Positions 25,104-59,483 of a stretch of DNA of 64,000 bases are shown one piece after another; position 1 is the first letter of the stretch; every line of letters starts with the position of its first letter. A program made the position numbers and the translations under genes. The DNA is from a virus, in the IMG/VR virus record IMGVR_UViG_3300020463_003399, positions 25,561 to 89,560 of that record; one strand, written 5' to 3'. The notes beneath the pieces are model-generated. The model was not told the origin of the DNA and made no database searches. It saw only the letters and a program-made list of their open reading frames with translations.

Positions 25104-25607
25104 ATGAAAATATTAACTCCAGAAAATCACTGTTATGAAATGAACAGTTTACCAGAGAATGAAATAGAAGACATAAGATATTGTGTAATGGATGTAACAG
25201 ATAAAGCAGAACCAGATTTCTTTTTTATTCCATTAGTATTCATCGAAACATTTAATGCACCAAGTATAAGTCTTAATATTGGAAAACATCAAATAGAAAT
25301 GCCAATAGATTGGAATATATTAATAGGAGATAGAGATATAGGTGAACTAGAATTTGTGCCTCTTACAAGCATAAATGAAAGAACTTTTCAAACTATCTTG
25401 ACAAATCCTCTAGGAGGATTTACAATGACATGGGAAGACATAAAAGTAAACAATGTATTTGCAGATGTAAAATGGTTTTTTCCAAAGTTAAAGTATGGAC
25501 ATATTTTAACAGTTCCTTTAGAACATGGACCAAAACCAAAGTGTGCATATTTCGTTAAAGACTTGAATAGAATTCCAGACGTATTACATAGTTATGACTT
25601 TTTTTAA
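25104..25607 (+). CDS. Hypothetical protein
   Basis: ORF directly after uvsW. Confidence 0.65.
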   Translation: MKILTPENHCYEMNSLPENEIEDIRYCVMDVTDKAEPDFFFIPLVFIETFNAPSISLNIGKHQIEMPIDWNILIGDRDIGELEFVPLTSINERTFQTILTNPLGGFTMTWEDIKVNNVFADVKWFFPKLKYGHILTVPLEHGPKPKCAYFVKDLNRIPDVLHSYDFF

Positions 25608-57345: not shown

Positions 57346-58215
57346 GTGTCAGAAATCATAGAACAATTTAAAAAGTATAGAAAGCAGATAGACTTAGAGT
57401 TTCTATCAGATACCCATGTGCATTATTGTACGCCTTGTTATGGTGGACAAATATCAGAAGGATTTTTTCGTTCTTGGTCAAAAGCACATATGACGTATAC
57501 AAAATACGGCATTCCATATTCAGTAACTACATCAGCAAATGAATCTTTAGTAACAAGAGCAAGATGTCATATGGTTGCGTATATGATGGCAAATCCAAAA
57601 GCTACACACTTAATGTTTATTGATGCAGATATTAACTTTGATTGTATTGATATTTTACATATGGTACAACATGATAAAGATATTATTGTAGGTGCATATC
57701 CAAAGAAAGATTTAGATTGGCGTGAGTTTGAAAGAAAAGTACTTCAAGGTAAACAACGTAGTGTTGAAGAATTGAAATCATTAGGTTCTAAGTATGCATT
57801 AAATTTTGATTGGATTGTAAACGAAGAAACTAATGAAAGAGAAATTGACGTAAAAGACGGATTGATAAAACTAAAAGATGCGGCTACAGGATTTATGTTA
57901 ATCAAACGTGAAGTATTTCTTAAAATGATGGACGCATATCCTGACTTATATTTTCATAATGATTTAGAATTACCAGAAAACGAAGCCAAATACACTTATC
58001 TATTTTTTGATGCTATGCATGAAAAAGAAACAAAAAGATATCTATCAGAAGATTATGCTTTTTGTAGAAGATGGCAAGCATTAGGTGGCGAGGTTTGGTT
58101 AGATCCACTTATTAAACTGGATCATATAGGTCACTTTACGTTTCCTGGTGAAATCAGTAAATTGTTTATGTCAACAAATAGTACTAACTCACCCTCAGAT
58201 GAGTTAGATACTTAA
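57346..58215 (+). CDS. GT-A-fold glycosyltransferase-like protein
   Basis: TPCYGG, ESLVTRAR, LMFIDAD, TGFMLIKR, SEDYAFC, LDHIG; promoter TTGACA-N17-TATTCT at 57294. Confidence 0.75.
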   Translation: MSEIIEQFKKYRKQIDLEFLSDTHVHYCTPCYGGQISEGFFRSWSKAHMTYTKYGIPYSVTTSANESLVTRARCHMVAYMMANPKATHLMFIDADINFDCIDILHMVQHDKDIIVGAYPKKDLDWREFERKVLQGKQRSVEELKSLGSKYALNFDWIVNEETNEREIDVKDGLIKLKDAATGFMLIKREVFLKMMDAYPDLYFHNDLELPENEAKYTYLFFDAMHEKETKRYLSEDYAFCRRWQALGGEVWLDPLIKLDHIGHFTFPGEISKLFMSTNSTNSPSDELDT

Positions 58216-58216
58216 G

Positions 58217-58264
58217 TTATTTTCCGTTAATAAAGTCTAGTTCGTCATCAGTGTAAGGCCACAT
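58217..58264 (-). CDS. 15-aa micro-ORF MWPYTDDELDFINGK
   Basis: SD GAGGAG 7 nt before the ATG. Confidence 0.55.
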   Translation of the reverse strand: MWPYTDDELDFINGK

Positions 58265-58358
58265 GATGCATCTCCTCTTTTCTTTTATTTTTTTTATCTA
58301 AAATACCTCTTCCAGCATCACTAGATATTATTATACTTGATACTAAACCTAGTATCAT
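58248..58358 (-). CDS. Possible 36-aa ORF MILGLVSSIIISSDAGRGILDKKNKRKEEMHHVALH
   Basis: Open frame filling the gap; no adjacent SD. Confidence 0.3.
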   Translation of the reverse strand: MILGLVSSIIISSDAGRGILDKKNKRKEEMHHVALH

Positions 58359-58374
58359 AAAGATGCGAATGAAT

Positions 58375-58497
58375 TTAGGCTATCTCCTTGCCACACATTA
58401 AGTCTTTCGCTTTTTTGTGATGGCCTTGTCTTGCTAATTCAGTCGCCGCTCTCATACGTCCAATATGTTCAAACCATGCAAGTAATCTTTTAACCAT
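58375..58497 (-). CDS. 40-aa micro-ORF MVKRLLAWFEHIGRMRAATELARQGHHKKAKDLMCGKEIA
   Basis: Starts 3 nt after the upstream stop; basic amphipathic helix. Confidence 0.65.
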   Translation of the reverse strand: MVKRLLAWFEHIGRMRAATELARQGHHKKAKDLMCGKEIA

Positions 58498-58500
58498 ATA

Positions 58501-58662
58501 CTAGATCCAACCTTTCAGATTTGGATTTACGTTACCGTATGTTAAATTCTTTTGTCTTTGTTCTAAGTCAACCAAATCTACAGAATTGCTTAGATAGACA
58601 TCAACTGGTGTAGTTGATTCCCAACCCCATTTAAAAGTAAAAAGTCTTTTTATAAAGTTCAT
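58501..58662 (-). CDS. 53-aa DUF3563-like small protein
   Basis: SD AGGAG; YLSNSVDLVDLEQRQKNL motif. Confidence 0.65.
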   Translation of the reverse strand: MNFIKRLFTFKWGWESTTPVDVYLSNSVDLVDLEQRQKNLTYGNVNPNLKGWI

Positions 58663-58676
58663 TATTAGTTCTCCTA

Positions 58677-58859
58677 TTAGTTTTTAATTCTATTCGTTTT
58701 ATGCCAAGTTGGTGCTTTCCCTGTCAAACACATTTGTTCGTAGGCATACTTCCAATCTTTTTTGTATTCTGTTTTCGCCCATATCAAAAACTCTCTGTGG
58801 CGTGGCTTTTCACTATCCGCAAAGACATTAAGTAGGGCATCGAAAAAATTCGTTACCAT
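58677..58859 (-). CDS. 60-aa small protein
   Basis: SD GGAG; WAKTEYKKDWKYAY. Confidence 0.7.
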   Translation of the reverse strand: MVTNFFDALLNVFADSEKPRHREFLIWAKTEYKKDWKYAYEQMCLTGKAPTWHKTNRIKN

Positions 58860-59007
58860 TCTCTAACTCCGTTCCAAATTGTAGATGCTTAAGGTAAGCA
58901 ATACCCCGGTCTCTCCCGGCGCCGCTCTTGTAAGGCATGGGTTATGCCACGGTCTTTCCCTGTCGCCAACACAGTGTAAACTTTTGGGAAGTATCGCAAC
59001 TGTGTCC
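58860..59007 (-). ncRNA. Putative structured leader / sRNA with five hairpins
   Basis: GC-rich; hairpins at 59006-58968, 58962-58948, 58948-58934, 58919-58906 and 58900-58886; CTAAATA promoter at 59013-59019. Confidence 0.6.
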
Positions 59008-59186
59008 ACTTCTATTTAGTCTAAATATGTTTGAAAAGTGACAGAATTACTGTTTTTTTTCGACAATCCCGGTATGTCATAAACGCAGGGCTAAAGCATA
59101 GCTTGTATAACTTATGAACATATCAATTTATCTATTGCTTTTTGTTTCAGAATGTGATATTATAGATATAATAATACGAGAAAACC

Positions 59187-59483
59187 ATGGAATATAAAAC
59201 AGTACATTGCGTAAAATATAACAAGGAACTACGTGCCTTAGATAAAGCACCTTTTCCAGGACCTGCAGGTAAAGAAATATTTGAAAAAGTTTCTGAACAA
59301 GCATGGAATGATTGGCTAAATTTTCAAACAATTCTTATTAATGAAAATAGATTAAATCTTATGGAAGAGAATGCAAGAGATTTTTTAACAAAACAAAGAA
59401 ATAAGTTTTTCTTTGAGCCAGGAGAATTAGATATGCCAGAACAATTTGTAGATCCTAACAAAGTGCCTGATTTGAAATCGTGA
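59187..59483 (+). CDS. yggX: Fe(II)-trafficking / oxidative damage protection protein YggX
   Basis: [38 protein letters not shown]; promoter TTGCTT-N17-TATTAT at 59135. Confidence 0.9.

Follow-up and report, generated by a model that had tools for sequence, protein, structure and literature searches.

Do very short open reading frames, packed behind a structured RNA on the strand opposite to nearly all long genes of a marine phage, encode proteins, do they form one unit with that RNA, and what could such a unit do? These questions are raised by the 89.6-kb viral record IMGVR_UViG_3300020463_003399, which represents an AT-rich myophage with a CheckV completeness of 24%. A tail sheath, NrdA and a DnaB-like helicase are all encoded in this record, and the tail sheath is 39% identical to the sheaths of the Pseudomonas jumbo phage PA5oct and its kin. 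The stretch analysed here, referred to as the window, comprises 64,000 nucleotides (positions 25,561 to 89,560 of the record). With few exceptions, the long ORFs of the window occupy the plus strand, and the micro-ORF array lies on the minus strand, antisense between a 289-aa glycosyltransferase-like gene and a gene of the YggX (Fe2+-trafficking) type.

Organization of the micro-ORF cassette

A sequence-only reading of the window had described four or five tightly packed micro-ORFs that run against the main direction of the genome. All five were indeed found in such an array on the minus strand within 58217-58859, and all five are coding, which confirms that the number is five and not four. 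The ribosome-binding sites that had been named were present as well, namely GGAG before orf60, AGGAG before orf53 and GAGGAG before orf15, and the only Shine-Dalgarno (SD) sequence of orf40 is AAAGG, located inside the end of orf53. Upstream of the first micro-ORF, orf60, the DNA is rich in G+C (about 48%). This side of the array also contains a CTAAATA box from which, by T4 spacing, a transcript start at 59007 is predicted; as is characteristic of T4-type late units, a TATAAATA-like box thereby stands about 6 nt upstream of the start. At the other end the array is followed by an intrinsic terminator, and relatives carry other G+C-rich hairpins with T runs at this position. It is highly probable that the locus constitutes a self-contained late operon, which comprises a late promoter, a 148-nt leader, five packed and translationally coupled micro-cistrons and an intrinsic terminator (Table 1), and that it lies antisense among unrelated genes in a moron-like manner.

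Table 1. Positions of the cassette features within the window
Feature	Position	Strand	Remarks
Late promoter-like box (T4-type) CTAAATA	59013-59019	-	From the sequence; TATAAATA or CTAAATA at the same place in aligned relatives
Structured leader RNA	58860-59007	-	148 nt; from alignments of relatives; stems covary
Leader P1	58969-59005	-	
Leader hairpin H1	58949-58963	-	GAAAGA loop, bulged stem
Leader hairpin H2	58934-58948	-	
Leader hairpin H5	58906-58919	-	CCGG-GAGAGA-CCGG
Leader hairpin H6	58884-58905	-	Near-invariant (GGUAUUGCU..CCU.AAGCAUC)
SD GGAG of leader	58867-58870	-	
orf60, family A	58677-58859	-	60 aa; ..WAKTEYxxDWxYAY..; pI 9.4; dN/dS 0.28
orf53, slot-2 protein	58501-58662	-	DUF3563-like (YLSNSVDLVDLEQRQ); ends NLKGWI; dN/dS 0.32
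orf40, family C	58375-58497	-	40 aa; ..GRxRAAxELARQGYHxEAKxLM..; pI 10.2; dN/dS 0.25
orf36	58248-58358 (ORF, ATG at 58358); 58248-58373 (constrained frame)	-	dN/dS 0.25
orf15, family D	58217-58264	-	Acidic 15-mer MWPYTDDELDFINGK; own GAGGAG SD; dN/dS 0.11
Intrinsic terminator	58184-58207	-	Hairpin plus T-rich tail; 10 nt past orf15 stop

Transcription of the cassette was considered with the aid of RNA-library contigs, which match only 58301-58628 and 58710-59007 and none of the flanking plus-strand genes. One of these contigs spans 58762-59007 and ends at 59007, exactly the start predicted from the CTAAATA box, which is a weak hint that this start is used. The contigs, from four runs and at least three studies, derive from close relatives and may contain DNA; since the 90% likeness filter favours conserved parts, such as the leader and orf40, a stretch without cover was not taken as silent. 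The RNA-library contigs are thus supportive of cassette transcription, but they do not prove it.

The flanking genes may be described briefly. The 289-aa gene (57346-58215, plus strand) is convergent with the cassette, and its stop falls within the terminator region of the latter; across 17 viral contigs its identity is 67-87%, and its sole Pfam match is a weak one of the Anp1/glycosyltransferase-like kind. The YggX-type gene (59187-59483, plus strand; PF04362, E 4e-33) adjoins the cassette, is kept beside it in close relatives, and is annotated also in two Acinetobacter phage records.

Frame-specific purifying selection in all five micro-ORFs

When each peptide was searched with tblastn, all five turned up in related viral contigs, and the array was present in all contigs retrieved via either the neighbouring 289-aa gene or orf60. 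We then compared the micro-ORFs of 8 loci that share the same architecture. Purifying selection was observed only in the own frame of each of the five ORFs, with dN/dS values of 0.11-0.32, whereas the two shifted frames of orf60, orf53, orf40 and orf15 displayed values of 0.8-2.8. In the 15 codons of orf15, nine third positions, three first positions and no second positions were found to vary. The spacer between orf40 and orf15 had a dN/dS of 0.25 in the frame of orf36, compared to 0.86 and 1.28 in the shifted frames, and we therefore conclude that orf36, which had been listed in brackets by the sequence-only reading, is also coding. Furthermore, indels in the orf36 frame are multiples of 3, and one Arg codon switches among CGC, CGA and AGA. 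The notion that the ORFs are chance open frames in a non-coding region, to which their very small size and the lack of a conserved canonical start codon in orf36 might have lent some credit, retains practically no probability, as it is refuted by the frame-specific selection in all five frames and contradicted by hundreds of homologous clusters and a conserved gene order.

Uncatalogued protein families

The orf60 protein belongs to a family (A) of 316 clusters at 90% identity in a set of 5.8 billion proteins, and the orf40 protein to a family (C) of 1347 such clusters; both families come from marine metagenomes and have neither a Pfam domain nor a name. For orf60, AlphaFold2 predicted three helices with a pLDDT of 68, and Foldseek found no fold match for this model in the PDB. 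For orf40, a helical hairpin was predicted (helices 2-23 and 27-35; pLDDT 82). Comparison of families A and C with PDB sequence profiles gave nothing significant, the ESM Atlas returned unnamed or viral clusters only, and searches of the micro-ORFs against PHROGs and Pfam resulted in weak single matches only. A match of orf60 to Crl was seen in one of 62 family members and was dismissed as chance. The family of orf15 (D) comprises 28 distinct variants in which W2, P3 and E8 are invariant, with the consensus E-x-[DE]-[FW]-[LVI]-[SN]-G. The products of orf60, orf53, orf40 and orf15 are soluble and charged.

No homologue of orf60 was present among 50,697 records of cultured phages. A pattern scan for the orf60 family in one genome per species (185,579 prokaryotic species) gave a single match, which lies inside a 488-aa glycosyltransferase and is spurious. 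Families A, C and D, the orf36 type and the leader RNA are uncatalogued.

A covarying leader RNA with repeated hexaloop hairpins

In relatives, the leader follows a common order, in which the promoter box is succeeded by a variable first hairpin, one to four hexaloop hairpins, interspersed variable hairpins and a last hairpin. The hexaloop hairpins are defined by a closing G-C pair and the loop N-A-N-A-G-A. The last hairpin consists of GGUAUUGCU, a C/U-rich loop and AAGCAUCC, and is located 20-35 nt upstream of the first start codon. Among 55 distinct hexaloop hairpins, G5, A7, A9, G10, A11 and C12 are invariant, and five to six pair types occur at three stem positions. The covariation score of this set was 0.85 as compared to 0.18 in shuffles; 92% of the stem cells were paired, a figure that is partly built in because the hairpins were chosen for at least 4 paired positions. 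The leader of the window carries two hexaloop hairpins, one of them with a bulged stem, and elsewhere in the window hairpins of the GAWAGA type did not occur above chance.

Folding of the single leader sequence was no better than that of shuffles (z = -0.37). RNAalifold, applied to a MAFFT alignment of leaders, recovered only 7 invariant pairs, a low yield because gaps in this alignment misplace the stems. No Rfam family matched the leader, either at the gathering score or at E up to 10 for the window and up to 1 for 8 relatives.

The leader and the cassette genes occur together

In IMG/VR, marine myophages of the jumbo or T4-like kind carry the cassette on well over 100 contigs. An alignment-based scan of IMG/VR gave 144 confirmed loci, 80 of which were examined, 63 of these being distinct; one cassette-bearing relative is a complete 342.6-kb genome with terminal repeats. 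The common gene order is A (the orf60 type), slot 2, C (the orf40 type), optional extras and D (the orf15 type). The extras include a 44-aa protein termed C2, an 84-aa protein with a YEPGDHY tail, small hydrophobic proteins and a lysine-rich peptide of 20 aa. In most of the loci that were found via protein A, the RNA lies upstream.

The association was likewise approached from the RNA side, using a 20-nt pattern of the last hairpin as the sole query against IMG/VR. Cassette genes were present in 60 of the 66 usable distinct loci, and in 52 of them the start of an orf60-type gene lies 16-44 nt downstream of the motif. HMM searches were performed on the 53 RNA-anchored loci with at least 900 nt downstream, and these detected C in 48, A in 44, a slot-2 protein in 42 and D in 28. 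Three of the five loci without a C match have a divergent C-like protein of 56 aa, one has the last hairpin only, and the fifth is a chance-looking match that falls in a coding-looking stretch. Since C is found in 48 of 53 loci and a divergent C-like protein in three of the five others, the leader and the C-family protein form the invariant core, while A, the slot-2 protein and D are each absent from some RNA loci. In sum, the synteny of peptides and RNA motif extends to other genomes. The earlier proposal that RNA and peptides form one module was thus borne out as far as it concerns a syntenic and co-oriented unit, confirmed from the RNA side and from the protein side; its other part, post-transcriptional control by RNA and peptides, is something that we can only infer. 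The host mimicry suggested in the same proposal finds no support, given that the orf60 family gave a single spurious match among the 185,579 species, that families A and C lack a Pfam domain and a name, and that the RNA is a 5′ leader and not a 3′-derived sRNA. Taken jointly with the operon anatomy described above, we are highly confident that the cassette is a module of exchangeable parts that recurs in many ocean viral contigs.

Two further observations concern the genes carried with the cassette. The loci L156, L180 and L185 combine a short leader with a divergent 56-aa C-like protein and a secreted protein of 150 aa, that is, other cargo on the same core; the secreted protein may resemble curli-assembly proteins. 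Directly 3′ of the cassette, a copper protein of the pseudoazurin type (PF00127, E 1e-15), whose N-terminus is signal-like, is encoded in L044 (2256-2678), L047, L091, L099 and L100. Pseudoazurin follows the cassette in at least 6 loci, and either pseudoazurin or a 95-aa protein is often found there.

Two domain types alternate in slot 2

The sequence-only reading had noted a DUF3563-like motif in the array, and this motif is real. The orf53 protein itself matches DUF3563 (PF12086) with 18.8 bits (E 0.0017) at profile positions 27-45 only and stays below the cut-off of 26.9, whereas its same-slot relative in L055 exceeds the cut-off with 31.1 bits. The two proteins are 35% identical and have YLS.S.D..DLE.R in common. 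By transitivity through such relatives, orf53 can be placed in DUF3563.

It had also been noted that short basic DUF1127 proteins are co-regulated with small RNAs in alphaproteobacteria. The link to DUF1127 (PF06568) is real: none of the micro-ORFs of the window matches this family, but a true DUF1127 protein occupies the slot of orf53 in sister cassettes. In particular, the slot-2 protein of L044 is a bona fide member with 44.6 bits, the cut-off being 23.3. Among the examined loci, slot 2 was filled by DUF3563 in 26 and by DUF1127 in 29, about half each. Paralogy of C, DUF1127 and DUF3563 was considered and rejected, as hhalign finds no homology between them. Profile comparison showed that the DUF3563 and DUF1127 types share only a 9-residue tail that overlaps the next ribosome site, and the phage versions of DUF3563 have a common N.NLKGW[VI] tail that overlaps the ribosome site of the next gene. 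The two types are interchangeable by position and not demonstrably related. The library searched contained no paper on DUF3563, and the occupation of one slot by both types provides a natural context of interchange that makes their long-unclear function testable.

The start of orf36 and its coupling to orf15

Coding constraint in orf36 begins at 58373, directly after the stop of orf40 and upstream of the ATG at 58358. No canonical start is conserved in this region (58370 / 58377); five loci have an ATT two codons past the orf40 stop, and the other two have a TTG that overlaps the end of orf40. The start of orf36 is likely the ATT at 58370, which gives a product of 40 aa. From this arrangement we infer that orf36 would be translated by termination-reinitiation at a near-cognate start, resulting in a peptide of about 40 aa. 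Its sequence has a hydrophobic N-terminus (Kyte-Doolittle 15-residue maximum of 2.47), followed by ..GRGILDKKxKRKEE... In L037 (1971-2138, plus strand) the orf36-type frame enters orf15 in-frame and without a stop, so that 56 codons are read through. Since the one frame runs into the other in this locus, the hydrophobic peptide and the 15-mer are tied in function.

In L033 and the P0174 lineage, orf36 continues the frame of orf40 on the far side of a TAG. Recoding of TAG and natural fusions of B and C or of C and orf36 were rated artefacts of gene calling or assembly, with the exception of the orf36-D fusion in L037, which is in the DNA itself. The 'fused' database proteins have TAG read as Q on contigs of less than 1.2 kb, or they lie on contigs with several frame changes. 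For instance, P0122, P0131, P0142 and P0174 are public gene calls on very short contigs in which TAG is taken as Gln and neighbouring micro-genes are joined; these look like an artefact of alternative-code gene calling and not like evidence of recoding. In the window, TAG terminates 6 of the 59 long ORFs.

A tentative model and its rivals

What could this operon do? In the reading that we favour, the orf40 protein, a basic helical hairpin, would bind the repeated leader hairpins with their closing G-C pair and N-A-N-A-G-A loop, possibly acting together with the DUF3563/DUF1127 slot protein, and such binding would exert feedback on the operon mRNA, either on its translation or on its stability. 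The effectors would be the acidic 15-mer and the hydrophobic peptide of orf36, two products that are coupled and that some phages fuse; they would act at the membrane or on a conserved groove in which a host protein or a phage protein binds its partners. To the statement as a whole, namely the operon as described, orf40-leader autoregulation and the other products as effectors, we assign a probability of roughly one in three (about 0.35). Recognition of the leader hairpins is proposed for the C protein because it is the sole universal partner of the RNA, because it is strongly basic, and because identical loops vary in copy number; moreover, a leader with one to four hexaloop hairpins is more readily understood as a series of sites for a protein than as one ligand pocket. 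A precedent is provided by the DUF1127 protein CcaF1, which binds RNAs of the operon that encodes it (PMC8034643). RNA binding by orf40 is opposed by its content of only four Arg and its lack of a known RNA-binding motif, and autoregulation by the hydrophobic nature of several sister-cassette proteins. Complex prediction for orf60 plus orf40 gave a score of 0.00 and no verdict.

The main rival of orf40 autoregulation holds that the cassette encodes small membrane-associated modulators of a host sensor kinase or transporter, in the way that DUF1127 binds PhoR and SsrA and MgrB binds PhoQ, and that the role of the leader is limited to translation or stability, with a host factor or another phage factor reading it. 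Marine phages are known to manipulate phosphate regulation, which counts in its favour, and it would suit the alternation of DUF1127 and DUF3563 in slot 2. Proteins of the DUF1127 type have the sensor kinases PhoR and SsrA as binding partners at the membrane and control the uptake of phosphate, and YjiS associates with the inner membrane (PMC12501420, PMC11707872). Further support comes from the hydrophobic N-terminus of orf36, from sister cassettes in which C has a hydrophobic extension at its N-terminus and separate small hydrophobic proteins directly precede D, and from the pseudoazurin with its signal-like N-terminus that follows at least 6 cassettes. However, slot 2 of the window contains DUF3563 instead of DUF1127, it is C and not the slot-2 protein that invariably accompanies the RNA, and late expression would be an odd time to take over host signalling. 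Altogether, we regard such modulation of host signalling as unlikely, at about one chance in five or slightly better.

In a second alternative, the orf15 peptide is a free-standing mimic of a short linear motif, the best candidate being the clamp-binding tail of the T4 type, and would compete with the polymerase or late-transcription factors for the sliding clamp late in infection. T4 gp43 ends in ..EEKASLDFLFG and T4 gp55 in ..SLDFLYEAND, and orf15, the most constrained cistron (dN/dS 0.11), ends in ..YTDDELDFINGK, that is, an acidic run followed by L-D-F-I-x-G at the C-terminus. The lineage moreover has T4-type late promoters, a gp55 homologue and a T4-like PolB, and gp55 homologues were detected in three of the five related records searched, including the complete 342.6-kb record. 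Nevertheless, orf15 agrees with the T4 tails at only 5 of 7 residues of a short motif whose L position varies among the D variants. In the 342.6-kb relative, the PolB tail (..SEQFTNLFEF) and the gp55-like tail (..KEIYADND) are both not close to D, and neither BLAST nor a PF02916 search of this complete genome revealed a gp45 clamp homologue. The coupling or fusion of D to a hydrophobic peptide would also be better suited to a membrane setting. Clamp mimicry is, in our opinion, distinctly improbable. As to the 342.6-kb record, which contains L034, its gp55-like late sigma has 308 aa (L233, 958-1884) and its T4-like PolB is found at L235.

The leader could, alternatively, be a riboswitch-like element that senses a ligand or the temperature independently of the cassette proteins. 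Conserved unpaired stretches, covarying stems, a near-invariant 3′ hairpin near the SD and the absence of a match to a known family would be expected of such an element, but leaders differ in the order and number of their hairpins (2 to more than 5) and nevertheless have identical loops, which is atypical of a single pocket; the odds of this interpretation are low. Lower still is the likelihood that the cassette provides membrane peptides that act late, either to time lysis or to exclude superinfecting phages. The late promoter, the hydrophobic orf36 and the small hydrophobic proteins of sister cassettes would be in keeping with this role, yet orf60, orf53, orf40 and orf15 specify soluble, charged products, the hydrophobic stretch of orf36 amounts to only about 16 residues, and no endolysin or holin was seen among the neighbours of the cassette.

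Implications

The autoregulation model may be extended to a phage RNA-microprotein module, in which an undescribed 40-aa family reads an undescribed hexaloop in its own leader and drives swappable effectors, including an acidic peptide of 15 residues, and in which these effectors serve to adjust host RNA metabolism, signalling or the replication clamp late in marine jumbo phage infection. In this full and combined form the idea is speculative and rather unlikely to hold. Microproteins of less than 50 aa are mostly missed by phage annotation, and the cassette offers a clean and apparently ocean-widespread case, with five co-transcribed micro-genes, the 15-codon one being the most constrained, plus an uncatalogued structured RNA. 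Owing to their small size, the RNA motif and the basic 40-aa protein lend themselves to direct biochemical and structural study. Should the core prove to be an RNA-protein switch, it would represent a compact new regulatory part, and should the 15-mer prove to mimic a motif, few phage-encoded effectors known to us would be smaller.

Comparison with known systems

In lambda, the gene of the small, basic and helical N protein lies downstream of GNRA-like hairpin loops, rich in purines, in the leader of N itself, and N autoregulates. The likeness of lambda N/nutL to the phage module would be one of analogy only: the sequences are not similar, orf40 does not belong to the arginine-rich motif peptides, the hexaloops of the phage cassettes are closed by G-C, a boxA is missing, and the setting is a late unit of the T4 type. 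With regard to orf15, the clamp-binding tails of T4 gp43, gp55 and gp33 offer a resemblance in the acidic run and the subsequent L-D-F-[LI]-x-G at the C-terminus; these are, however, tails of enzymes and not a free 15-mer, and the polymerase and gp55 tails of the phage's own lineage differ.

The CcsR sRNAs of Rhodobacter are transcribed together with the DUF1127 protein CcaF1, and this protein binds them, that is to say RNAs from its own operon (PMC8034643). Like the phage cassettes, of which the sister versions hold DUF1127, this locus combines a tiny DUF1127-type protein with a multi-hairpin RNA that has C/U-rich loops, and the last hairpin of the phage leader has a loop of the UCCUC type. 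On the other hand, the phage RNA precedes the first cistron in every locus that was examined, whereas the CcsR RNAs are sRNAs derived from a 3′-UTR, and the dominant phage loops are N-A-N-A-G-A and not CCUCCUCCC. The Rfam families cuckoo/CcsR and AbcR gave no leader match (up to E 10 for the window and up to E 1 for 8 relatives). The phage cassette differs, in addition, by the DUF3563 protein of the window, by its four further protein families, and by being viral and driven from a late promoter. Of the known systems, small-protein-plus-RNA loci such as ccaF1-CcsR nonetheless come closest to the architecture of the cassette.
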